IMG/VR virus record: IMGVR_UViG_3300042691_032331
Span: 31,133 to 95,132 of that record
Length of the DNA stretch: 64,000 nucleotides
Source of the DNA: a virus
Direction: 5' to 3' (one strand)
The notes under the pieces are model-generated. The model made no database searches, was not told the origin of the DNA, and saw only the letters and a list, made by a program, of their open reading frames with translations. The stretch's first letter is position 1, and every line of letters starts with the position of its first letter. Below are positions 31,080-63,965 of the stretch, piece after piece. The translations under genes and the position numbers were made by a program.

Positions 31080-31353
31080 GTGTGCCGTTATTCATAAACA
31101 CTACACTGAATTTATCAGTTTTAAATTGCTTGTTTAATTTACGACAAAGATTCCTAGCATGACCAGGATTACTAAAACTTGTTTTTTTATATTTTGGAAC
31201 TGCTTCGTTATCAAGATAATGTTGACTTTTTAGATTGATAGGATGCCCGTCATAAAACACAGCCCATATACCTGCTGCTTCTACAATTTGATCACATTTG
31301 TAGGTTTGCTTATCGACTATTTCAAGTATAACTTTAGGTTGTGTTCTGCTCAT
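31060..31353 (-). CDS. Conserved phage hypothetical protein
   Basis: PKYKKTSFSNPGHARNL. Confidence 0.65.
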   Translation of the reverse strand: MSRTQPKVILEIVDKQTYKCDQIVEAAGIWAVFYDGHPINLKSQHYLDNEAVPKYKKTSFSNPGHARNLCRKLNKQFKTDKFSVVFMNNGTRVYPDD

Positions 31354-51763: not shown

Positions 51764-54469
51764 TTAACCATAACTGAATAATAAGTCAAAAGTTGTTTTT
51801 GTGTTAGTGCTATCACGTAAGTCCCAATTCAAAACGTCAAGTAAGTTGTCTATTTTTTCATCTACTAATGTTTGTTCCATAGCGTCATCATCAAATGGCA
51901 AATCACGAAACCATTGTGGTAAACGTAATTCATCAGTAGGGTAAGCAATACTTGTAAAGCCTAATGGATTGTTGCGTAGTTTACACACAACAATTTTCAT
52001 GCCATCTACAATTTTTTGACTATAGTTATCTCCGTGTACTTTTCGTAGATAGTTCCAATTTAATGCAGCACGTACATGTCCGGGCATATTAGCTTTACCT
52101 GTACTGCTGTTTGCTTCTTTTTCACCATACATTGTCAAATTGTTTACACTCTTTGGACTACCCTTTGTCCAACTATCTTGCGCTGATAATGTAAACTTAA
52201 ACTGACGAATTACTTCTACCACTTCGTCACGTTGTTTACCTCCAAGAACCATTTCAAGAACACCCATTAAAAAGTCTTGTACTTGTTTCGGAGTATCAGC
52301 ACGTTTCAAATCAAGACCCATTGCCTTAATTTTACCCATTGAGTCTTTATCTAAACGTTTACCTTCTTTGTCATAGATATTAATTGCATAGCGTTTCTTT
52401 GTGATAAAGATGCTACGATCACCGATTAGTTCTCTTCCTGCTTTAATAATTGCACCATTTTTTCTAGGTGCATGAAATGCAGTTTCCATAAATGCAGGAA
52501 AACTTACATTGACTTGTTCAGCAATATTATCATAAAGTTGAATACATATGTCTTTATCCCACTGAACTTCACCTTTTTCTATGTCACTTTTGAGTAATGG
52601 ATAAGCACTGAAGTAACAACTATCAGTATCTCCATAAACGATTGCTTCACCTTCGTGATTATATTCACCTGCAATGCATTCGTTAATTTTACTCATCATA
52701 TGTCTAGTGATTTGGCGACCACACAGTGTTACACTTTGACCAATTCGTTTATCATAGAAACGACAATGTTCATTTAGTAGTGCGCCATATGCAGAGTTGA
52801 GTAGAATCTTTCGGACTAACTGACGTTTATCCCAATACTCTTTATCATAGTCGGTTGTTGATTCTTTTAGTTTCTTCTGCATTTCTTTACGATCACTATA
52901 CCAGCGTGAGAGTAGACCTGGGATCACGCCTTCTTGCTCAAATGTAAATATAGTACCATTAGCACTAAGCATATATGGCTTGTGACTATCAAAGATAAGT
53001 TTCCATACTTCTGCTGCACTCATTTCAACACTACGTCCATCTTCGTAATCAATGGTTAGCATAGTGCCACGTTCTTGATTCATAATAGCAGTATACTCTA
53101 ATGAACCAAATAAGTTTTCCCACAGTATTGCACCAGTTACGGCTTCGTCTTCATTTTTCCTACGTTTCTTTTCACTGGCAAGTCTTAATCCTTTTTCTCG
53201 CATAAATTGGTCAGTAAGAGTTTGCCTGACTTGTCCAACGATTGTTTCTGGAGCCATGTTAAGGGCACGAATAACGCTGGGATAGAGCGAGTTGATATCG
53301 ACTGCTCCGACGTATTCATGCATTCCCCTTTTCGGCGTAGCAACATAGGCACCTGCTGCTTGTTGTTCATCAGTATTATCCTTTCGTGATTTATCGGGTA
53401 CTACAACACCTCTTTCATGTGCTTCATTAAAAACTGCTTGTTCAATCATTGCAACTGAACCCATTACTGTTGGCAACAGCACAGTATTTTCATGTGCTAG
53501 TGCATTTGCCAAATCTAAGAATTTCAATTTGTTGTGTATCTTGACCAACAACATTGTATCTTGACGATTATATTCTAAAAACTTTTCCCAGTCTTTATTG
53601 TATAATTGATCAAGTGTGCCTTCATATTGTGTTTTGTTTTCACCAACTTCCATCTCACCGATGAAGTCAAGTTTATAACTATGGCGACTTTCATAATTGT
53701 ATTTCTTATACAATTGCAAATAGTCCATGTGAATTCGACCGATTAGATCATATGTAGTTTCTTCTTTACCAAATCTTTCATATGTGCGAGGTTTAGGAAG
53801 TTGACCAAGTAAACAAAACTTTCTTGTATCGTCTTTACTCATTACACGTGTTACACGATTTACCATATATGGTATATCATATCCTTCTGAGTTCCAACCA
53901 GTCAATACATCTGCATCACTAATAAGTTGGAAGAATGTGTCAAACATATCTTTTTCAGACTTAAACAACAATGTGTTATCAAACTTTGCAGTTATCTCTG
54001 TTGCTGTTTCATCACTCATATGTTTTGGAGCAACACACAATGTGATTAATAAGTCTTGCCAATCCAAATACATTGATATAGCCGTAACTGGATTGAATGG
54101 ATCATCAGTTGGACTGAATCCTTTTTCAGGATCAAAGTCAACCTCAATATCGAAAAAACATGTATGAAGTTTAGGAGGCTCTGCACCCAAGTAGTTATCA
54201 CTAAGGCATCTAAAGACTACATTAACATCACTTTCAAATAGTTTTTTGCCTGAGTGTATTCTGCGTTCTTTTTCAAATTCACTGCGTTTGCGTGTACTAA
54301 ATCTGCTTACAGGATCACCGTAAATACTGCGATATTTGCCTTTAGGATCACTGTAATAAAAAACATAGTTTGCAGGATATTCTTTGTATGTACGCTTACC
54401 TTCTGGTGTGCGTTCTACTACAAATATTCTGTCACTGTCTCTATCTAATATTGCGTCAATATAACTCAT
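51764..54469 (-). CDS. Family B DNA polymerase
   Basis: FFDIE (ExoI), GWNSEGYD, YNRQD, DINSLYPS, KILLNSAYG, YGDTDS and KKRY motifs. Confidence 0.97.
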   Translation of the reverse strand: MSYIDAILDRDSDRIFVVERTPEGKRTYKEYPANYVFYYSDPKGKYRSIYGDPVSRFSTRKRSEFEKERRIHSGKKLFESDVNVVFRCLSDNYLGAEPPKLHTCFFDIEVDFDPEKGFSPTDDPFNPVTAISMYLDWQDLLITLCVAPKHMSDETATEITAKFDNTLLFKSEKDMFDTFFQLISDADVLTGWNSEGYDIPYMVNRVTRVMSKDDTRKFCLLGQLPKPRTYERFGKEETTYDLIGRIHMDYLQLYKKYNYESRHSYKLDFIGEMEVGENKTQYEGTLDQLYNKDWEKFLEYNRQDTMLLVKIHNKLKFLDLANALAHENTVLLPTVMGSVAMIEQAVFNEAHERGVVVPDKSRKDNTDEQQAAGAYVATPKRGMHEYVGAVDINSLYPSVIRALNMAPETIVGQVRQTLTDQFMREKGLRLASEKKRRKNEDEAVTGAILWENLFGSLEYTAIMNQERGTMLTIDYEDGRSVEMSAAEVWKLIFDSHKPYMLSANGTIFTFEQEGVIPGLLSRWYSDRKEMQKKLKESTTDYDKEYWDKRQLVRKILLNSAYGALLNEHCRFYDKRIGQSVTLCGRQITRHMMSKINECIAGEYNHEGEAIVYGDTDSCYFSAYPLLKSDIEKGEVQWDKDICIQLYDNIAEQVNVSFPAFMETAFHAPRKNGAIIKAGRELIGDRSIFITKKRYAINIYDKEGKRLDKDSMGKIKAMGLDLKRADTPKQVQDFLMGVLEMVLGGKQRDEVVEVIRQFKFTLSAQDSWTKGSPKSVNNLTMYGEKEANSSTGKANMPGHVRAALNWNYLRKVHGDNYSQKIVDGMKIVVCKLRNNPLGFTSIAYPTDELRLPQWFRDLPFDDDAMEQTLVDEKIDNLLDVLNWDLRDSTNTKTTFDLLFSYG

Positions 54470-54750
54470 AGCATTCTTACCAATCCAATCGTATCAATGG
54501 TGGTGAGCAGTAGATAGTTAGCCAACATACCAAATGATTTGCGAGTCCAAGCAGCCCAAGCATACATAGTACAACCAGCGATCCAAATAGGATATAGAGT
54601 GAGGAGTGGAGGATTGGGAACTGTAAGCGCCATTGTGATCGAGCATCCAATACTGATAGCCCAAGCAAGCAACTCGACAGCAAAACGTACACGATGAGAT
54701 GCCCAATCATTTTTTATCCATTGTAGTATACTAGATACGCAATCAATCAA
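54466..54750 (-). CDS. Small three-helix membrane protein
   Basis: Hydrophobic segments; ATGA-coupled to the polymerase gene. Confidence 0.6.
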   Translation of the reverse strand: MIDCVSSILQWIKNDWASHRVRFAVELLAWAISIGCSITMALTVPNPPLLTLYPIWIAGCTMYAWAAWTRKSFGMLANYLLLTTIDTIGLVRML

Positions 54751-55004
54751 AGTGTCTTACCTACAGTTTCTAGTATAGTATTAAGTTCTTCGTTTTCTTT
54801 GTTTGTCTCACCAAGTTTTGATTTATATGCTACACGAATGGCTTTCTTTAATACACTTGGCTTTACTTCTAGTTCTTCTGCAATAGCCTTAACTGTATCG
54901 TTTAGACCCTCACTAAGTGTTTCTACTTCGTTCATTACTGCCATACCCTCATTAATTAGTTGGGTAAGTCTTAGTTTTTGTTCTGATGAAAAGGTACGAC
55001 TCAT
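54747..55004 (-). CDS. T4 DsbA-like double-stranded DNA-binding protein
   Basis: LINEG...IAEELEVKPSVLKKAIRVAYK helical pattern; AGGAG SD. Confidence 0.6.
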   Translation of the reverse strand: MSRTFSSEQKLRLTQLINEGMAVMNEVETLSEGLNDTVKAIAEELEVKPSVLKKAIRVAYKSKLGETNKENEELNTILETVGKTL

Positions 55005-55027: not shown

Positions 55028-55056
55028 AGTATATATGTAATGCATTTGTTTGTCAA
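55028..55056 (-). promoter_or_regulatory. sigma70 promoter TTGACA-N17-TATACT for the dsbA-like/polymerase operon
   Basis: Hexamers and spacing read directly. Confidence 0.7.
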
Positions 55057-55141: not shown

Positions 55142-56260
55142 TTAATGGATTGCGGTAGTCCAAGGATCTAGTATTACCGGAATACCGTCAGGTCTTTGTA
55201 ATATGTTTCCACAATGAAAGTCTGGGCTATATTTTTTACTTAGACCCAAATACCAAACAAATTTAAGCGTTTCGTAAAAATATTTGAACTGACGCTCCCC
55301 TCCCAATTGTTTGATAACACTATCTAAAACATTGTCTTTATCCTCACCGAGTCTTTTCCTTAAATCAGTAAGCATAACTTCATACTTGTCATTGTAATTT
55401 AGGTATGTTCTTAATGCCCTAAGTATAAAGCAAACATCACTGTCTAATGACTCTAATTTTTCTTGTTGAATTTGTAGGTAAGTTTTACCTCTGTGTTGAA
55501 AACTTTCATATCCATAAAATTTAGGGAAGAATGGATTATTAGGATGTTTCATGCAATATCTTACCCAAGTAAAAAACATAGCGTGTTCATTACTAAATGG
55601 TTGACCCTGTAAATCTTTTCCTGTTTTACTTGCACCAAATATTTTTAATACATTACCCGTAGTTGGTTCAATATATGCATACTGGTCTATTCCAGATCCT
55701 AAATACTTATAACCTTTATTAATTAGTGAGGTGTGTATAGAACGGTGAGTTGTTGTAGCTTCACCTAATTCGTTATTTTGTGTGTCTACTGAATTCTTAG
55801 CGAGTACAAAACTTTTACCTTGAAATTTCAAATATTCTTGTAATTCATCAGGTAAATCAGAAACACTGGCATTATGATACCCTAAAGCAGGAGCAAAAGT
55901 ATTAACTAATCTTGAATATAATGATATTCTACTTTTTTCCCGTGCTGAAAATATTAAATAATTTGGTTGGTATTTTTTAATAAAGCGTAATACACCATAT
56001 ATTATTGTATTAAATATTGGTATAACATCACGCTCATTTTTTCCTCGTATATCATAATGGTCATTAACAGTGAATTCGCAAATGTAATGATTTAAATCAT
56101 ATATTGAATAGAAATCCATTACTAACTTATTACCTAGTTCAGTTTCTGTCCTTGCTCGTATTATACCACCTCGTCCTGGATCATCCCATTCCAACGGATA
56201 TCTGTTACTCATCAATGATTTAGTAGAAAAAACTTCTGTTAAAAAATCCGTTGCTCTCAT
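55142..56260 (-). CDS. Putative virion-internal protein: N-terminal domain plus Ser/Thr-kinase-like domain
   Basis: Starts MRATDFLTE; C-terminal LGSG...VLKI...DFHCGNIL...ILDP. Confidence 0.7.
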   Translation of the reverse strand: MRATDFLTEVFSTKSLMSNRYPLEWDDPGRGGIIRARTETELGNKLVMDFYSIYDLNHYICEFTVNDHYDIRGKNERDVIPIFNTIIYGVLRFIKKYQPNYLIFSAREKSRISLYSRLVNTFAPALGYHNASVSDLPDELQEYLKFQGKSFVLAKNSVDTQNNELGEATTTHRSIHTSLINKGYKYLGSGIDQYAYIEPTTGNVLKIFGASKTGKDLQGQPFSNEHAMFFTWVRYCMKHPNNPFFPKFYGYESFQHRGKTYLQIQQEKLESLDSDVCFILRALRTYLNYNDKYEVMLTDLRKRLGEDKDNVLDSVIKQLGGERQFKYFYETLKFVWYLGLSKKYSPDFHCGNILQRPDGIPVILDPWTTAIH

Positions 56261-56826
56261 TTTTGACCTATTATTAACCAGCAATTATATTTAGTTTCTG
56301 GATCAGTTAATACGATTTCGTCAATCAATAAAGTTTTATTCATTGGGAACGCATCATAAAATTCTTCAAAATTTTTATATTGATTAGTAGCATTTGGATC
56401 ATTATCTCTTGCTTGTAGCATTACAGTTGTGCCATAAGGAATTCTTGCAAACCAATCATTGCCCTTTATGTTTGTGCAACTAAAACAAACAACCAAACCG
56501 TTCTTACCTAATTGTCTATAATCTAATTTATTTGCATCCTTATACATAGACTCAATATTATCTATTTTAAGTTTTTTTATTATTTCGTCACCTGCGTTTA
56601 GTTTTTCTTTATCTGTCTCAACATTTATAATTTTATTAAAATTGAAGTATTTTCTCAGTAAATGAAACATAATACTGATGTTGCCATACCAGCTACCTAA
56701 AATATAGATTGTATCAAAATCTGTTTTAACTTTTTTAAGGTTGTACAAACTCCAAAGTCTTGCTAAGTTTAGACTTTTACCATAACTTCCTTTACTTGTA
56801 TTTGGATTTACTTCTTTAATTTTCAT
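56257..56826 (-). CDS. Class I SAM-dependent methyltransferase-like protein
   Basis: IYILGSWYG, INVETD and KDAN motifs. Confidence 0.6.
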   Translation of the reverse strand: MKIKEVNPNTSKGSYGKSLNLARLWSLYNLKKVKTDFDTIYILGSWYGNISIMFHLLRKYFNFNKIINVETDKEKLNAGDEIIKKLKIDNIESMYKDANKLDYRQLGKNGLVVCFSCTNIKGNDWFARIPYGTTVMLQARDNDPNATNQYKNFEEFYDAFPMNKTLLIDEIVLTDPETKYNCWLIIGQK

Positions 56827-58253
56827 AATTCTACTTGTAAATCGTCGCTGTTTTTATTTTTAACTTCACGTGAATATCCTTGTCCAAGCACTTGAATATT
56901 ACCGTCTATCCATTCTGCTAAATTTGCAGCTACACTACCCCTAATATTATCACTTATATATTGACTTAATAAACTAGGTATACTACGGAATGTTTCGAGT
57001 ATAATATCATCTTCATCATTTACTTGTTGTTCCCAATTTTCTACTTCTTGTTGTTTTATTGAAGCACTATTAAATGACCGTATTAGTTTCATATTTTCTT
57101 TATACCAATAACGTACTTCATCACGATAATTAATATATTGTATTTGATCCGGTAATTCATCCCATTTTATAACACCATCGTCATCTAATAATCCATTATC
57201 AGCAGCATACTTAAAAACCTCGTCATTATAAAAATCATCATTACTTTCTAATGTGTTAAGAGCATCATTAACGGCGTTTTCAGCAAATTCTTGAATTTTA
57301 GTTACTATCTCTGTAATTCTTCCATCATCTTCATCTGCCATAATTATCCAATTATTAATAAACTCATACCTTTCGGCAAACAAATCAAACAAGTTGAATC
57401 TTTCTTTTAATATCCAATCCGGTCTTACTGGTTCATCTTGTTCATTCATAAATGATTCTGAACCAAAATGTAATTGATACTTTTCTCCTGTGTATTCAGA
57501 GTTTGTCGGTAATAATATATACAATGGACCACGTTTATTATATGTGTTAAAATAATTAGTACCTCTAGTTGCGGCAGTACACCATTGTGTTCCTTGTCCA
57601 TAATAACAAGCAGCTTCTTGATCTTCAGGAATTACTATTCTTACTTGATCATCTTTATAAAATTCTTTAACTTTACCTTTTTGTATTTCTTGTTTTTGTT
57701 TCCCTAATAATGCATCTAAATCATATTGTGTACTCATAACAGTTTCAAAATCTCTGTAGGTTTTGAAACGGTTTATATCAGCATGTTCAGGTTTAATCAT
57801 TCTACGAATCTTACCTTGATAGTGACTGTTTAACATGTCCCAACGATTCAAATCTTCAAATTTTATTTTACCGGTTGCAAATTGTTTTACTAGCCAGTTA
57901 CTATATTCTTTCTTTGGGGTAGGGTCTTTACTAGCAATCATATCAACAATTCTTTTTAATATCTGAGGCTTGTGTGTTTCAATATATTGAGTCCCTGTAA
58001 TTGTTTGCGGTAATCTTGCACCGGTTATAGGATCTACTGATAGTGTATAGGAACTACCAGAAAATCCATTATTGCCAGAAAACCCTATCAGATACATTCT
58101 CTTTATTTGATACAAGTCCGAAAAGTCATTAAAATCTTCGTTAGTTGGACCAGCAGCACTATTAAAAAATACATCCAACAACTTATCACCGTACTGTTTT
58201 GCAAGGCCGTTTGGATTATATCCTGCTTCAGTTAAAAATTGAAATGCTCTCAT
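56823..58253 (-). CDS. Putative virion-internal protein (YYGxGTxWCTA domain)
   Basis: Starts MRAFQFLTE; DPTPKKEY, AACYYGQGTQWCTA and EKYQLHF motifs. Confidence 0.6.
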   Translation of the reverse strand: MRAFQFLTEAGYNPNGLAKQYGDKLLDVFFNSAAGPTNEDFNDFSDLYQIKRMYLIGFSGNNGFSGSSYTLSVDPITGARLPQTITGTQYIETHKPQILKRIVDMIASKDPTPKKEYSNWLVKQFATGKIKFEDLNRWDMLNSHYQGKIRRMIKPEHADINRFKTYRDFETVMSTQYDLDALLGKQKQEIQKGKVKEFYKDDQVRIVIPEDQEAACYYGQGTQWCTAATRGTNYFNTYNKRGPLYILLPTNSEYTGEKYQLHFGSESFMNEQDEPVRPDWILKERFNLFDLFAERYEFINNWIIMADEDDGRITEIVTKIQEFAENAVNDALNTLESNDDFYNDEVFKYAADNGLLDDDGVIKWDELPDQIQYINYRDEVRYWYKENMKLIRSFNSASIKQQEVENWEQQVNDEDDIILETFRSIPSLLSQYISDNIRGSVAANLAEWIDGNIQVLGQGYSREVKNKNSDDLQVEL

Positions 58254-58807
58254 TTTTCTCTCTGTATCATTGCTTTGGGATCAAGTTCAGCTCCCATCTG
58301 CATATCTCTAGTATCTGGCACACCTACACCACCTGAACCGCCACCGGCTCGAACTCCTGCTGCTTTTGTATCAATTGGTGCTTTAGCCACATCAGATGAC
58401 GAAGCAAAAACTACAGGTACTTTTGCTGTTTTCCATAACGGATTATCTCTATCCAGTCTTTTTTGTAATAAGCCTAAGGCTGAAATTCTATGAGCCCCGT
58501 CATTTAGTTTTCCATCTATAGCTACAATAGGTGGTAAATTTTTTAATGATTCGGGATTGTTCTTTAAAAATTTTGCATATTCCACCGCTTTAGGAGTTAC
58601 ATCCCAACTAAAATCTTTTTTATCGTAATCCCTAATCACATCTTTGTGATATGGTATTCCTTGTATGCTTTTATGAATTTGTTTTAAAGTTAAATTTTGT
58701 TGATTAACATTAGTATCGGGATTTAATTGTGCAGCTTTACCAGAACTTGGTCCTGGCTGTGGCACAGATATATCGTCTGCTTCTCTTATAAACTCGTATG
58801 CTCTCAT
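58250..58807 (-). CDS. Putative virion-internal ParB/Srx-like protein
   Basis: Starts MRAYEFIRE; LPPIV...DGAHRISA. Confidence 0.6.
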   Translation of the reverse strand: MRAYEFIREADDISVPQPGPSSGKAAQLNPDTNVNQQNLTLKQIHKSIQGIPYHKDVIRDYDKKDFSWDVTPKAVEYAKFLKNNPESLKNLPPIVAIDGKLNDGAHRISALGLLQKRLDRDNPLWKTAKVPVVFASSSDVAKAPIDTKAAGVRAGGGSGGVGVPDTRDMQMGAELDPKAMIQREK

Positions 58808-59430
58808 TATACTTCCACTTCATCATCTGTTGCGTTGACTGCTGCTAAAGGCTCTATAGGTTTCATAGGTTTAATTATTTTTGATTGCGCTGGAGTCATG
58901 CTTGCATCAGTAGGTTCATTTTTACTAACAATAGTTTGTCCTACATTTTTAAATGCATCTTTAAAACTAGGTTGTGTTGGCACAGGCGCAACTGTTTTAG
59001 GTTTCTGCACAACTTTATCTATGTTGGGATCATATCCTGAAACATAATTTTGTGTTTGTTTAAAAGGAGGTACACCTTTATATTTGTCAACATTAGCCGG
59101 ACCTGCATTGTAAGCTGCTAATGCTAATACAGGATCTTTGTACTTCTGATATAATTGACTTAGATATTTTGTTCCACCTTCAATATTTTGATATGGATCA
59201 AATCTATCTGTTACTCCTAATCCCTTTGCTGTTGCTGGCATTAACTGCATGATACCACCTGCACCTTTTTTACTAACAGCCTTTGCTCTTTGATTTGGGT
59301 CTTGAATATGTCCTGTTTCTTTGTGCATGGCGTGTTGTACAAGACTAAATGGCACTCCATACTTCTCGCTCATTTGCTTTGCGTAAGCATTAAGTTCATT
59401 GTTTTCAAAAATAAATTCTTTTGCTCTCAT
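58807..59430 (-). CDS. Soluble lytic transglycosylase (SLT), putative virion-internal
   Basis: Starts MRAKEFIFE; KETG, GAGGIMQLMPATA, NIEGG and ALAAYNAGP motifs. Confidence 0.88.
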   Translation of the reverse strand: MRAKEFIFENNELNAYAKQMSEKYGVPFSLVQHAMHKETGHIQDPNQRAKAVSKKGAGGIMQLMPATAKGLGVTDRFDPYQNIEGGTKYLSQLYQKYKDPVLALAAYNAGPANVDKYKGVPPFKQTQNYVSGYDPNIDKVVQKPKTVAPVPTQPSFKDAFKNVGQTIVSKNEPTDASMTPAQSKIIKPMKPIEPLAAVNATDDEVEV

Positions 59431-59792
59431 AATAAATTATAATCTTCTTCAATTTTGGTCAAACAATATACTGCACCGCTCATCGTAGCACTAACTCTAT
59501 AGATAAAGTTATCATCAAAATAGGGTTGACCTTCTTCTATACTACCTTGTTTAACTAACACTACACCTTCATGATCTAATGCAAATAAAATTGCATCTAA
59601 CGTATTTTCATCTCTAGTTCTTATACACGCAAAGGCATTCTTTTGATCTGGTAATTTTCTAGTTTTAAATTTAAACTTTTTAAGTTCAGTAGTGATTATT
59701 TGCATGAATTCTTTAAAGTTTCCTTTTGGAGGTTCATAGTCATCACCATGTGATTTATCTACAAACTCTTTTAAAAAATCTGTTGCTCTCAT
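59427..59792 (-). CDS. Putative virion-internal protein
   Basis: Starts MRATDFLKE. Confidence 0.6.
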   Translation of the reverse strand: MRATDFLKEFVDKSHGDDYEPPKGNFKEFMQIITTELKKFKFKTRKLPDQKNAFACIRTRDENTLDAILFALDHEGVVLVKQGSIEEGQPYFDDNFIYRVSATMSGAVYCLTKIEEDYNLL

Positions 59793-59793
59793 C

Positions 59794-61476
59794 TTAGAAT
59801 CCTGCGTCTACTATTCTGTAATGTTTTGGGCCAACTAATTCAAATTCATACTTATCATCATCGTCGGCTATGAAAGGACGCATTGCATGTCTAGCTCTCA
59901 TGCCAGTACCTTTGCCGTATCTTATAGTTAAAGAACCGTTAGGAGTGAATCCATTTATATCAAAATTTGCTTTAACCACTTGTCCTATAGCACCAATAAC
60001 TTTACTGTCAACACGATAACCTTGTTTCAATAATCTATCAGCAGTAGAAACAATTTTACTTATTTCTCCGTCATCATCACCTCGTTTGCGGTCGTCTAAG
60101 AATTCAGACAGTTGTTGTCCACTAATTACTTGTGCAATTTTTAATGCATTCTTAGATGACTTTAGTTCACCGCTAGGGCCTTTCTTACCGTGTCCTATAC
60201 CTTGATTATCATAGTCTAATAGTATTACATTAACACTAGCATATTCACCACGTTGCGGATGTACAAAACTATACAATATTGCACCACGATGAGATTTGTC
60301 TTTAGGTACAAACTTAACACTTACTTGATTAGGCTTTGACCTGTTTATTCTTGTATAACCGCGGCCTAAATATTGTTCAATAATATCGGCAAATTCAGAC
60401 AAGTACATAGCATCACTATCATCACCGTCGTCTCCTGAAGTATCTAAGAATTCATTTATATCTTTTTTAGCAAAGCGTGAATTGTAGAAATTACCTTCTA
60501 TGTACCAATCACAATCATCTTCGTTGACTCGTACATCGTGTACTAAAACATAATATCCTTGATCATCTAACCATTCTTGTGCAGTTTGTATCATTGCTTC
60601 TGGTGAAACATCTCCGGCTACATCCATATCTTCATACCAGCCCTCACCAACAATGTCTATCATTTCATCATCTGAATACCAACGACCTGTTCCATTACCC
60701 GGTCCAGGCACAAATTCGTTTAAGTTATCTGGCTTTCTAAATGTATGTTTTGGTTGATCTGCTAACTCTTGTGGATCATAATACCAAACTGTGTTATCAT
60801 TTAAATCTTTAATAAACCAAATAACTAATTTTGTTTCAGGATCAGCATTCCATATGTATTCTAATTCTTCTTTAGCATCGTCTATGCTAGAAAAAGTACC
60901 AACCAAATGGTGTTTAATTCCATCGCTGATATACAATTTAAATTGTGCGAAGCCCTCTGGTGCAAATTCATCGATATAAACCCTAGTTTTTGCAGGATCG
61001 TAATTTTTTAGTCGTAACACAATCGTTTCTTCTCTTACACCATTTACTGATGCATTATCAATTTCTTGACCAATCTCACGATCTTTGTACCAATCAGGAT
61101 AGATTTCATAATTGGTTAATGCTTGTGTCATTCTTAAATATAAGTTGCGTTTTTTGCGACTCTCAGTTTCAAATACAATGATGGGTGGTCTAAATTTTTT
61201 GAGATAATCTTTACACGCAGTTGCTACAGTTGAAAATATTTTGATAGCATCACCTTTACCGGTGTCATGAAATTCATCGTCAATATAAAAATGAACTACG
61301 ACAAACAACAAGTGTGTACCACCTTGATCACTATCAAGCATACTATCAAATACTATTCTACCTTTTCTATCATCTATTGTAGTGAAATTATATTCTCTAT
61401 CAGCAGCACCAATTGCCCTTAATTCTAATTGATAAGGTTGTGTCCAAAGTTCTGTTAAAAATTCTTGTGCCCTCAT
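59794..61476 (-). CDS. Putative virion-internal polyprotein
   Basis: Starts MRAQEFLTE; five internal (L/I)xEF sites. Confidence 0.6.
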   Translation of the reverse strand: MRAQEFLTELWTQPYQLELRAIGAADREYNFTTIDDRKGRIVFDSMLDSDQGGTHLLFVVVHFYIDDEFHDTGKGDAIKIFSTVATACKDYLKKFRPPIIVFETESRKKRNLYLRMTQALTNYEIYPDWYKDREIGQEIDNASVNGVREETIVLRLKNYDPAKTRVYIDEFAPEGFAQFKLYISDGIKHHLVGTFSSIDDAKEELEYIWNADPETKLVIWFIKDLNDNTVWYYDPQELADQPKHTFRKPDNLNEFVPGPGNGTGRWYSDDEMIDIVGEGWYEDMDVAGDVSPEAMIQTAQEWLDDQGYYVLVHDVRVNEDDCDWYIEGNFYNSRFAKKDINEFLDTSGDDGDDSDAMYLSEFADIIEQYLGRGYTRINRSKPNQVSVKFVPKDKSHRGAILYSFVHPQRGEYASVNVILLDYDNQGIGHGKKGPSGELKSSKNALKIAQVISGQQLSEFLDDRKRGDDDGEISKIVSTADRLLKQGYRVDSKVIGAIGQVVKANFDINGFTPNGSLTIRYGKGTGMRARHAMRPFIADDDDKYEFELVGPKHYRIVDAGF

Positions 61477-62273
61477 TGTACTTTTCTCGCAAATAATCCA
61501 GTTTTATAATCATTATAATTTTCGTTTGGATTATAAAGTTTACTAAGTCTATTTTTAATATAAGCTTCTAGTCTGCTTTCACCTGCTACGATATCAAATG
61601 CCCAATATTCATAACTTTTATTTTTACCTATAAATTGACCACCTAAAGCCATTATATCGTCATAGAATTTACTTACCATTTGTTTATTATAATGTGTTTT
61701 ATAATTTGTCAATGATCTGTGTATCACTACATAACCTTTTACTTCTACACCAGGGATAGTATTTAAATTTAACCAATTACGCTGTCCGCCCGGTGTTTGC
61801 TGTGATCCTGAAATAATTGTTACTCCAGAATTTAATATTGTAGAATACATTGCTTTTGCTAATCCAATTCCTCTGTATTTTTCATGCACTGTTACAGTTG
61901 TAACCATATATGAACTTTTAACAGGAAAATTTGCAATTATTAAATTTATTTTAGCAACTTGCAATCCCTTCTTCTTTTGTATTAGATAATTGTCATATTT
62001 CCTCATACCAATTGAGTACAGGTATGGAAAATCTTTCTTAATACTTTTAGGAGGTTTTGGCTCAGGTTCTATAGATGCATTCGTGTCAAACACTCTTAAT
62101 GTAATGCTTTGCTTTGATTGAACTAAATTATATTGATACCCTACATATCCCGGCAATGGATAAAATTTTCCTTTAATATCCTTAAGGGGACTTAGATGCA
62201 ATTCTGTCTCGCCACCTGTATAACCAGATTGGGGAATATTTTGAATTTCGGATATAAACTCAGTTGCTCTCAT
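61473..62273 (-). CDS. Putative virion-internal GNAT acetyltransferase
   Basis: Starts MRATEFISE; VTVHEKYRGIGLAKAMY acetyl-CoA motif A; QTPGG. Confidence 0.7.
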   Translation of the reverse strand: MRATEFISEIQNIPQSGYTGGETELHLSPLKDIKGKFYPLPGYVGYQYNLVQSKQSITLRVFDTNASIEPEPKPPKSIKKDFPYLYSIGMRKYDNYLIQKKKGLQVAKINLIIANFPVKSSYMVTTVTVHEKYRGIGLAKAMYSTILNSGVTIISGSQQTPGGQRNWLNLNTIPGVEVKGYVVIHRSLTNYKTHYNKQMVSKFYDDIMALGGQFIGKNKSYEYWAFDIVAGESRLEAYIKNRLSKLYNPNENYNDYKTGLFARKVQ

Positions 62274-63214
62274 TGGAATATTTCAGGATGCTTTTTGCCG
62301 TAAATTTTAATATACTTACCAGCTAACATATCTGCCATTGCTTCTATTGGACTACCTGGATAACTATCACCATGTTTAATCATATTCAATTGTTGTTGCT
62401 TTGAATGTACTAGCTCATGGAATATAGTTCTAAAAATGTCTATTAGATTTCTATTACCAACATATATCCAAATCTTTTCTTCTTTGCCATCATGTGTATG
62501 TACACCAGTGTGATGACCCTTTTGTGCTTTATCTGTATCAGTGCTTATTTCAATTTTAGGATATGGTTTTTCTAAGTTAACTATTTTTATTGACCAATCA
62601 ATAAAGTCACGAATCTTTTGCATATCTTCATCTGATTCTACACCCTCGTTTACATTTTCATAAAGACTATTGATTTCATTTTGTTTAATATAATATTTCT
62701 TGCCTGTTTTTTCATGTATAACAATTAAATCATATGGAGAAGGTACTTCCCACTCAATATTATATCCTTTTTTGTGAAGCTCCCATAGTATATCATTTTG
62801 TCCTTCTTCATCCTGTACATATAATTCATATATGGCTTCTTGTATGTCCAGTGGTAAATTATTAAATGACAATCTCAATGGTGTGATATTACCTGTAGGT
62901 TCAGTTACAGTTCTTTGATTTTTAGGTGGTAGATTTACTACTTTTGTTTGACGCTTACGATTTAGACTTTTGCGAACTGGGAATTTAACTACGTCACCTT
63001 CACCGATCTTTTCTTTGTATTTTTTAATCCAATGATCAGGTGTTTCCCCATACTTGCTTACAAACAAATCATGTAGTTTTTTACCTGTAATTTTGTAGCG
63101 GCGACTGATCCTGCGCATAAGCTTGTCAATTGTGTCATAGTCTGTTTTTTTCAGACTAGGCAGCTTTTTCTTTAAATCGTCTGCTGCGCTCTCGTAAAAA
63201 TCATTCGCTCTCAT
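62270..63214 (-). CDS. Putative virion-internal protein with a C-terminal zincin (HExxH) domain
   Basis: Starts MRANDFYE; RTIFHELVHSKQ...E. Confidence 0.65.
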   Translation of the reverse strand: MRANDFYESAADDLKKKLPSLKKTDYDTIDKLMRRISRRYKITGKKLHDLFVSKYGETPDHWIKKYKEKIGEGDVVKFPVRKSLNRKRQTKVVNLPPKNQRTVTEPTGNITPLRLSFNNLPLDIQEAIYELYVQDEEGQNDILWELHKKGYNIEWEVPSPYDLIVIHEKTGKKYYIKQNEINSLYENVNEGVESDEDMQKIRDFIDWSIKIVNLEKPYPKIEISTDTDKAQKGHHTGVHTHDGKEEKIWIYVGNRNLIDIFRTIFHELVHSKQQQLNMIKHGDSYPGSPIEAMADMLAGKYIKIYGKKHPEIFQ

Positions 63215-63234
63215 TAGAAAATCCCATAATATAG

Positions 63235-63242
63235 TATTTATG
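63235..63242 (-). promoter_or_regulatory. Late-promoter-like CATAAATA heading the MRAxEF gene array
   Basis: 7/8 match to T4 TATAAATA, about 20 nt before the first ATG. Confidence 0.5.
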
Positions 63243-63260
63243 CGATTTTATGGATGTTGG

Positions 63261-63965
63261 TTAAGTTCGTAGTTTTGCTAATCTACAAAATCTTAGAATG
63301 TTTAGATAAGTCCAGCCTATGTCGAATTCAAACCATCGACTGGAAAGTTTAGGACTTGCTGGATTTAAGTGATGATTATTGTGTAGTTCTTCCCCGCCTA
63401 TAATTAAACCAATTGGAATAATGTTTCTGCTTTGATCTTTAGTAGTACCGTTCCTATAGCCCCACCAATGTCCTATGCCATTGATGACACCTGCTGCCCA
63501 AAAGGGTATCCATAACATCTGCACTCCCCATATGACTAGTCCAATCCAACCAAAAATGATTAAGTTTAACACAAGCAATATTCCTATACCAAGTCTTGAG
63601 TGAGGAGTATATAACTTTCTTTCTATATAATCATTTGGAGTCCCAACACCATATGTATTGACCATATCATTGTCCTTACTAGCGTTGTTGTATAGTAACG
63701 CTCCCTGTAACAATACACGCCATAAGCCATATTGTACAGGACTATGTGGATCTCCTGCTTCTTCACAAAATCTATGATGTTTACGATGCACTGCTACCCA
63801 TTGTTTAGTGACCATGCCTGTAGTAAGCCATAACCAAAAACGCATGAAATGACTGACTATAAAATTAAATTCAATAGATTTATGTGCTTGACTGCGATGT
63901 AGATATAAAGTAACACATACAATGGTTATATGTGTACAGATAAGGGTGTATAAAATTTCAAACAT
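63261..63965 (-). CDS. Membrane fatty-acid (delta-9-type) desaturase
   Basis: His boxes HRSQAH, HRKHH and HNNHH; TM helices. Confidence 0.9.
   Translation of the reverse strand: MFEILYTLICTHITIVCVTLYLHRSQAHKSIEFNFIVSHFMRFWLWLTTGMVTKQWVAVHRKHHRFCEEAGDPHSPVQYGLWRVLLQGALLYNNASKDNDMVNTYGVGTPNDYIERKLYTPHSRLGIGILLVLNLIIFGWIGLVIWGVQMLWIPFWAAGVINGIGHWWGYRNGTTKDQSRNIIPIGLIIGGEELHNNHHLNPASPKLSSRWFEFDIGWTYLNILRFCRLAKLRT

Follow-up and report, generated by a model that had tools for sequence, protein, structure and literature searches.

Why should a run of neighbouring phage genes that encode unrelated proteins begin with nearly the same nine residues? The question is raised by positions 55142 to 63214 of a 64,000-nucleotide window of viral DNA (positions 31,133 to 95,132 of IMG/VR virus record IMGVR_UViG_3300042691_032331), which is the last 64 kb of a 95-kb virus contig that is about 27% complete. 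Our answer is that the shared start, MRAxEF[L/I]xE, is probably the capsid targeting sequence (CTS) of this lineage, of the type known from T4, and that it stands on swappable enzymes that would be packaged in the head, cut by a protease and injected into the host. The initial annotation of this DNA had proposed such a modular system of address tag and cargo, and the proposal gains support from the T4-type core of the tag, from the approximately 20 families of protein body that follow it, and from a gp21-type protease in the genome of a relative, G001.

A common leader on an array of coupled genes

The source of the window can be placed by its family-B DNA polymerase (51764-54469, minus strand), which is at best 49% identical to the polymerases of the cultured jumbo phages Sinorhizobium phage Phosso and Agrobacterium phage Atu_ph07 and 42% identical to those of the CBB/GAP32 group; we therefore take it to be an uncultured giant T4-related phage. 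A megablast comparison of the array with 50,697 phage records returned no near-identical cultured phage. The array consists of nine consecutive open reading frames (ORFs), all on the minus strand, running from 63214 down to 55142 and numbered here in that order. As the initial annotation had read them, eight of the nine carry a shared start and the ninth, gene 8, begins MKIKE, and the joints are mostly ATGA or TAATG overlaps: all of these starts were recovered, and overlaps occur at seven of the eight junctions (ATGA at six, TAATG at one), the remaining junction being TAAgATG with a one-base spacer. The eight tagged genes start with MRA-x-[E/D/Q]-F followed by a Glu at residue 9, or at residue 8 in gene 1. 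A genome-wide scan for the tag, which the same annotation had suggested, was run over the whole 95-kb contig in six frames; the pattern M[RK]...F..E occurs at seven places, all inside the array, and a looser pattern adds only an eighth, the MRANDFYE of gene 1. This restriction of the motif to the array is far beyond chance. The codons of Ala3, Glu5, Phe6 and Glu9 differ synonymously between copies of the tag, both in the array and in relatives, while the residues are fixed, which argues that selection acts on the tag peptide and not on the DNA; the Arg codons are AGA or AGG. Gene 8 (MKIKEV..., 189 residues, 56257..56826), which had been left outside the tag set, probably carries a tag that has decayed: among its relatives the start reads MRIVEFVLDE, MRISEV or else MKITEI, and they always stand immediately upstream of a tagged gene.

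The same leader recurs among relatives of the source phage: 80 related contigs have polymerases 77-87% identical to that of the window, among them the 367-kb G001 record, which is rated complete and has a polymerase 80% identical. Freshwater samples are a source of such contigs. ORF starts were scanned for M[RK]..[EDQ]F..E, a pattern that imposes F6 and E9 and leaves positions 3 and 7 free. This gave 71 distinct tags with the consensus M-R-A-x-E-F-[I/L/V]-x-E, in which little variation is seen at the two free positions (64 of the 71 have Ala3 and 70 have I/L/V7) and in which E9 is present throughout (71/71), though it is imposed by the pattern. Positions 4 and 8 are variable, and sequence conservation ends after residue 9. 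Clustered without their ten N-terminal residues, the 95 tagged ORFs form about 20 groups of unrelated bodies. G001 holds six strict tags at four separate sites of its genome, and two degenerate tags, MRAHELEE and MRFSEF, adjoin its polymerase. Three of its tagged genes adjoin probable tail-fibre or tail-sheath genes (N-termini judged by eye), and one stands with its own AGGA ribosome-binding site and spacer.

The conserved positions correspond to those that matter in T4. The initial annotation had cited MKTYQEFIAE as the start of T4 internal proteins, and this is borne out by the sequences of IPII and IPIII, both of which begin in that way; among other T4 head proteins, gp24 begins MAKINELLRE, gp22 begins MLKEQLIAE, and the gp23 propeptide holds FLTE-AEIGG. 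The first ten residues of IPIII are enough for encapsidation, and mutagenesis of the T4 CTS assigned targeting mainly to residues 4 and 7 and processing to residues 8 and 10 (PMC9026906, a review of the Black laboratory's work), while gp21 cleaves after the Glu of I/LxE (PMC12991175). Aligned from the C-terminal end, F6, I/L7 and E9 of the tag match T4 F7, I8 and E10, and seven of the eight array tags fit the [L/I]-x-E rule. The two leaders thus have the core E-F-[I/L]-x-E in common, ending in the I/LxE rule, and a gp21-type protease is found in both lineages; they differ in length, nine residues here and ten in T4, and in their first residues, MRA here and MKTYQ in T4. As in T4, where the CTS stands on IPI, IPII, IPIII and Alt and is removed by gp21 according to the summaries of Mullaney & Black 1996 given in PMC9026906 and PMC3012670, a short N-terminal leader is common to otherwise unrelated proteins. 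The arrangement here differs from that of T4 in that eight tagged genes lie in one operon instead of three scattered ip genes, the cargoes are mid-sized enzymes instead of small basic proteins, and fused and polyprotein forms with internal sites occur.

The head machinery that such a leader would serve is present in G001, where the head genes stand in T4 order with the portal gene (T4-type) first and the gene of a gp23-type major head protein last. The gp21-type protease (62183-62818 of G001) is recognized as Peptidase_S77 (E 3e-29) and as a 'head maturation protease' (E 3e-61); between it and the portal lie a 75-residue protein and then an acidic 303-residue protein, and the scaffold position is occupied by a 366-residue coiled-coil protein (62830-63930) that reads as helical and charged. 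Four [L/I]xE sites fall among the first 43 residues of the gp23-type capsid protein, which fits a T4-style multi-cut propeptide. As a separate observation, the 75-residue protein just named, whose neighbours are the portal and the acidic core-like protein (60920-61147 of G001, plus strand; 920-1147 of locus L103) starts MKLFEMF, which resembles both PA5oct gp205 (MKLFEVFTLYE) and the tag pattern M[KR]xxE.F.

In the window, CATAAATA lies at 63235..63242 on the minus strand, 20 nucleotides before the first ATG, in the 46-nucleotide gap between a desaturase gene and gene 1. The initial annotation had reported a late-type box before the array, which we located here and regard as a candidate T4-type late promoter; the window holds fewer copies of YATAAATA than expected (9 against 20.9). 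In G001, NATAAATA precedes the portal gene, tail-fibre-like ORFs and every operon with a tagged gene, and late expression of the array is plausible. If the leader does work as a CTS, the array would be transcribed as one unit, probably late, and the leader of each product would bind the scaffolding core of the assembling prohead. The gp21-type prohead protease would cut after Glu9 by the [L/I]-x-E rule, and the same protease would also cut the internal [L/I]xE sites of a fused kinase protein (gene 9) and of a 560-residue polyprotein (gene 3). The mature enzymes would remain inside the head beside the DNA, pass into the cell when the phage infects it and act before phage gene expression, the transglycosylase by cutting the wall, and the kinase, GNAT, ParB/sulfiredoxin (ParB/Srx) and HExxH proteins in host takeover or counter-defence.

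The cargo proteins and their turnover

The initial annotation had also suggested that cargo turnover be compared between relatives, and the loci vary strongly. Among the 22 relatives with at least 8 kb upstream of the polymerase, the HExxH protein is present in all 22, the WCTA protein of gene 7 in 10, the methyltransferase-like protein of gene 8 in four, the kinase and the N-terminal domain of the 560-residue protein in three each, and the GNAT protein in one; the SLT, ParB-like and 121-residue proteins were each found in none of the 22. These loci carry between zero and five strict tags, so the array of eight in the window is the largest seen, and the set of cargoes differs even where the relatives' polymerases are 87% identical. 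The T-even internal proteins are likewise described as diverse with 'only a conserved CTS' (PMC3012670), and the CTS itself as a mechanism 'to incorporate various proteins' (PMC9026906). The polymorphic ip loci of T-even phages (Repoila et al. 1994, cited in PMC3012670 and PMC9026906) resemble the present locus in being hypervariable, with the leader alone kept and the cargo exchanged between relatives, but the jumbo lineage studied here is far more distant, has many more cargo families, and carries the tag at several other genome sites in G001.

The names that had been given to the array bodies from short motifs fared unevenly: the lytic transglycosylase passed its Pfam threshold, others are upheld by fold or profile at moderate or lead level, the methyltransferase is a weak lead, and the 'WCTA domain' proved to be a large family of unknown function. 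Searching the body sequences against Pfam, PHROGs, NCBIfam and the PDB put a name to SLT alone. This is the domain of gene 5 (MRAKEFIFE, 207 residues, 58807..59430), which matches Pfam SLT (PF01464) over residues 20-129 with E 1.9e-23 and 82.7 bits against a cut-off of 21.3, and whose PHROG matches include 'internal virion protein with endolysin domain'; its assignment as a lytic transglycosylase is a firm prediction. The internal core protein gp16 of T7 also has an SLT domain, but the domain here forms a small separate protein in a myovirus-type phage. Gene 2 (MRATEFISE, 266 residues, 61473..62273) is GNAT-like, again at moderate or lead level: a profile built from 15 homologues matched the GNAT structure 7n1l best (E 0.003), nine of its 14 weak structure matches were N-acetyltransferases, and R134, G135, G137 and A139 of motif A are invariant, with scores below Pfam thresholds. 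Two of its homologues are named GNAT or RimI-like by the Joint Genome Institute (JGI). M1, A3, F6 and E9 of the tag are invariant. Gene 1 (MRANDFYE, 314 residues, 62270..63214) appears, with similar strength, to encode a protein with an HExxH zincin-like C-terminal domain, since HEL[VT]H is kept in all 15 distinct tagged homologues, and the ESM Atlas offers a weak lead to Peptidase_M78. An untagged homologue of 132 residues with HEFIH occurs in cyanophage S-SRM01, which suggests that this cargo is an ordinary phage protein recruited by addition of the leader. Gene 4 (MRATDFLKE, 121 residues, 59427..59792) is an orphan, for which neither a family match nor a homologue among the fetched relatives was found, and gene 8 has a weak NCBIfam match to the S-adenosylmethionine (SAM) region of RlmI (E 0.019), a weak lead to a methyltransferase-like protein.

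A ParB/sulfiredoxin fold is a supported prediction for gene 6 (MRAYEFIRE, 185 residues, 58250..58807). Its DGxHR motif (D103, G104, H106, R107) is nearly invariant among homologues, and the core of its AlphaFold2 (AF2) model has a predicted local distance difference test (pLDDT) score of about 90. In a wide structure search the nine best matches were sulfiredoxins, ParB/KorB-type proteins or others that we take to be of the same ParB/Srx fold, with modest Z scores (5.8-3.4), 73-85 residues aligned and root-mean-square deviations of 2.8-5.1; the top Foldseek matches were sulfiredoxin, ParB and Noc. Neither Pfam nor a PDB sequence-profile search gave a match. In another lineage the ParB-like cargo has a different leader, MNLQE.I.RI..., followed by the same mature start, PQPGxSSGK. 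Two side observations concern this protein. In another uncultured lineage, proteins P0163-P0166 have MNLQE.I.RI+..MMGVIN.N ahead of the same ParB-like cargo; this leader, too, has [L/I]xE sites and seems to form a class apart. The C-terminal 45 or so residues of gene 6 (58250-58390, minus strand) form a tail, K.AG[VI]..GGGSGGVGV.DTRDM..GAELDPKAMM.R.K, that is common to proteins with differing bodies (P0168, P0169 and P0171) and may be a second, C-terminal module; T4 Alt, for comparison, is also processed at its C-terminus.

Genes 9 and 3 suggest that cargoes can be combined within one product. Gene 9 (MRATDFLTE, 372 residues, 55142..56260) was taken to start at the tag at 56260, the program-made ORF reaching a TTG at 56284, and it joins a DUF6934-like N-terminal domain to a C-terminal half that reads, at moderate or lead level, as a T7 gp0.7-like protein kinase. 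The feature score of this half in the ESM Atlas was 0.95, to a cluster 42% of whose members carry PF27024 (Phage_T7_kinase), and its structural template-modelling (TM) score was 0.73 to a T7-kinase-bearing cluster and 0.51 to Pkinase clusters. A Pfam search gave no match to the kinase domain, and only three homologues of gene 9 were found in 5.8 billion proteins; VLKIFG, DFHCGN and LDPW, the Lys, catalytic-loop and DFG-like motifs, are kept in four kinase homologues. Relative L047 has the two halves as neighbouring genes with a tag apiece, and by this comparison gene 9 is a fusion of two cassettes. All four homologues have an LxE at the same distance, four residues, ahead of the kinase domain, as the tag's own site in one and internally in the others (LGE167 in the window). 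T7 gp0.7 itself is made early inside the cell and is not known to be packaged; the kinase domain of gene 9 is similar to it but carries a leader of the head-loading type. Gene 3 (MRAQEFLTE, 560 residues, 59794..61476) has six internal [L/I]xE sites. Phe comes directly after five of them (those ending at residues 170, 254, 342, 361 and 458), with a spacing of about 85-100 residues; the chance of the five Phe-followed sites is about two in a million, estimated at 5% Phe. Each such [L/I]xE-F site resembles the core of the tag repeated inside the protein, and gene 3 probably encodes a polyprotein. Its N-terminal domain, a weak DUF6934 match, is common to the kinase gene and relatives. As a further observation, this DUF6934-like domain of some 110 residues, with the pattern GDA.RIF.TV...Y..Y.P..L.FSA...SR..LY.RL, follows the tag in two proteins of the window (55700-56200 and 61100-61450, minus strand) and is the largest tagged cluster in the relatives (31 ORFs), where it sometimes occurs at internal positions.

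The WCTA family is represented by gene 7 (MRAFQFLTE, 476 residues, 56823..58253) and matches 5828 representative clusters at E<=1e-3. Of its best 150 clusters, 60 start with a strict tag and 12 more are tag-like, and the tagged starts typically run straight into a conserved LEYxRDxTA (MRAxEF[LI]xEYxRDxTA); E9, W224, C225 and T226 are invariant in 70 homologues of at most 40% identity. The AF2 model has a pLDDT of 90 and gave no match to the PDB by Foldseek (best E 0.55). A wide structure search returned helical-bundle matches with Z of at most 5.8 and GNAT-like matches over residues 194-306 with Z of 4-5, and we did not accept a fold from either. A homologue in PA5oct stands beside the terminase gene and is annotated as a structural protein found by electrospray ionization tandem mass spectrometry (ESI-MS/MS). 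Long WCTA-containing proteins carry ankyrin, WG, HEAT or no Pfam domains, and the WCTA protein has weak PcfJ-like structure matches. Iyer and colleagues are said to have described, in 2017, polyvalent proteins of phages and conjugative elements that are thought to enter the cell with the DNA. These have domains similar to those of the array, namely metallopeptidase, lytic transglycosylase, ParB-like and PcfJ-like, but in the array every domain has a gene and a leader to itself, and there is no giant fusion. We also observed that in the cultured Salicola phage SCTP-2 (440 kb) four adjacent genes start MK[VI][KT][HQ]IT (L138 4779-9820, equal to MF360958.1 37422-42463); in three of these the start extends to MK[VI].HITQYLFESY, which includes an LFE site, one of the four is a WCTA-family match, and the set suggests a lineage-specific leader array.

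The case for capsid targeting and its alternatives

Several points weigh against reading the tag as a CTS. Packaging, cleavage and expression in this lineage are predictions from genes, and a search of the 95-kb contig, itself a fragment, found neither Peptidase_S77 nor Gp23; with head genes of all three kinds (protease, scaffold and capsid) missing from it, the link to head machinery rests on a relative. The tag holds no conserved aromatic that would answer to Tyr4, a targeting residue in T4, and the tag of gene 1 ends in F-Y-E and not in [L/I]xE. Of the cultured phages scanned, Vibrio phage 2.275.O, Phosso, PA5oct and T4, none has a tag with the nine-residue spacing; a more permissive pattern run over the PA5oct genome picked up four weak look-alikes and no clear tag family, so PA5oct is unfit as a proteomic model for the tag. 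The array cargoes are larger and less basic than the T4 internal proteins. Lastly, NATAAATA in G001 also precedes non-structural genes such as dnaK and often lies about five nucleotides from the ATG, and late timing is thus unproven.

These points can be set against what other explanations would have to accommodate. One of them retains the protease and changes the fate of the product: the leader may be a removed propeptide or a core-assembly element, and the tagged proteins may build or fill the prohead core, like T4 gp67 and gp68 or the phiKZ inner body, and not be injected effectors. It invokes the same leader and protease logic, and it accounts for the recurrence of WCTA at the locus, for the structural annotation of its PA5oct homologue, and for a polyprotein that would give several pieces of 80-160 residues, as core proteins do. 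A scaffold, however, does not need SLT, kinase-like, GNAT-like, ParB/Srx or HExxH domains, and most of the cargoes are dispensable among close relatives, and we consider this account unlikely. We find it quite improbable that the tag addresses proteins to somewhere other than the capsid, such as a degron or protease pathway of the host, a site in the membrane or some other assembly of the phage. The missing equivalent of Tyr4 and a localisation deduced from gene content leave some room for such an address, but the leader is short, acidic and helical and unlike a signal peptide, its core equals that of the T4 CTS and ends in the prohead-protease rule, and several tagged genes of G001 adjoin the probable tail genes recognized by eye.

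The shared 5' ends might instead be a nucleic-acid device in which the peptide has no role, either letting translation restart at ATGA overlaps that lack a ribosome-binding site or providing short homology for the exchange of cassettes. The six ATGA junctions force an A after the ATG, ATGAGAGCA recurs, and the internal genes of the array have no clear Shine-Dalgarno sequence; moreover, Repoila and colleagues reportedly proposed in 1994 an exchange of T-even ip genes via conserved CTS-coding DNA. Yet the Ala, Glu and Phe codons vary while their residues stay fixed, tagged genes in G001 stand alone with spacers and an AGGA site, and conservation tracks the residues used for targeting and cleavage in T4, which makes this the least probable of the explanations considered. 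Recombination through the tag DNA could nevertheless coexist with targeting. Pure translational coupling as the sole cause of the tag was rejected on the synonymous codon variation and on the G001 gene with its own AGGA site and spacer.

If capsid targeting is the correct explanation, the known mechanism would be unchanged, as T4 internal proteins and Alt have already set the paradigm, and the T4 head-loading signal would be conserved in its core across very distant relatives. The signal would also be able to carry real enzymes (kinase, wall hydrolase, acetyltransferase and ParB-like) as well as fused multi-cargo proteins, and a large family without a known structural relative, WCTA, would travel with it. 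A tag that works as in T4 would make the proteins carried into the cell by an uncultured giant phage readable from sequence, and with them the first minutes of infection, in which takeover and counter-defence precede phage expression and which are otherwise invisible in metagenomes. It is possible, though we put it forward tentatively and as somewhat less than an even chance, that the leader marks the whole injected proteome of widespread uncultured T4-related phages, including a capsid-delivered T7-like kinase, head-cut polyproteins and WCTA as a major virion-delivered class. The 21 papers in the library searched that use the term 'capsid targeting sequence' appear, by their titles, to be on T4, P1, P22 or SPN3US-type phages, and none of them is on this lineage, tag or cargo set. 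In SPN3US and other phiKZ-like giant phages, ejection proteins have propeptides that a T4-related protease removes by cutting after Glu, and they are passed into the host (PMC5694885). The parallel with our proposal lies in the many head-internal proteins with a protease-removed N-terminal part, which here we infer from genes; the SPN3US propeptides, however, are mostly longer than 100 residues, follow an S/A-x-E rule and have no common nine-residue tag, unlike the short T4-style leader found here.

Boundaries of the array

On its downstream side the array is followed by a sigma-70-like promoter on the minus strand (55028..55056, TTGACA-17-TATACT), which is near consensus (11/12) and lies in a 137-nucleotide gap before a small gene and the polymerase gene; given this gap and promoter, we regard the array as a unit separate from the polymerase operon. 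The small gene (54747-55004, minus strand) encodes 85 residues, stands just before the DNA polymerase gene and is conserved in 83 related loci, and the two genes behind the promoter likely form an early or middle unit. Inside the array, sigma-70 promoters and terminators showed no excess over shuffled controls. Directly upstream of the array lies a fatty-acid desaturase gene (63261-63965, minus strand; Pfam FA_desaturase, E 4.6e-15). We regard this as an auxiliary metabolic gene of the phage group: the desaturase is 69-84% identical in eight related loci and stands at another genome site in G001.

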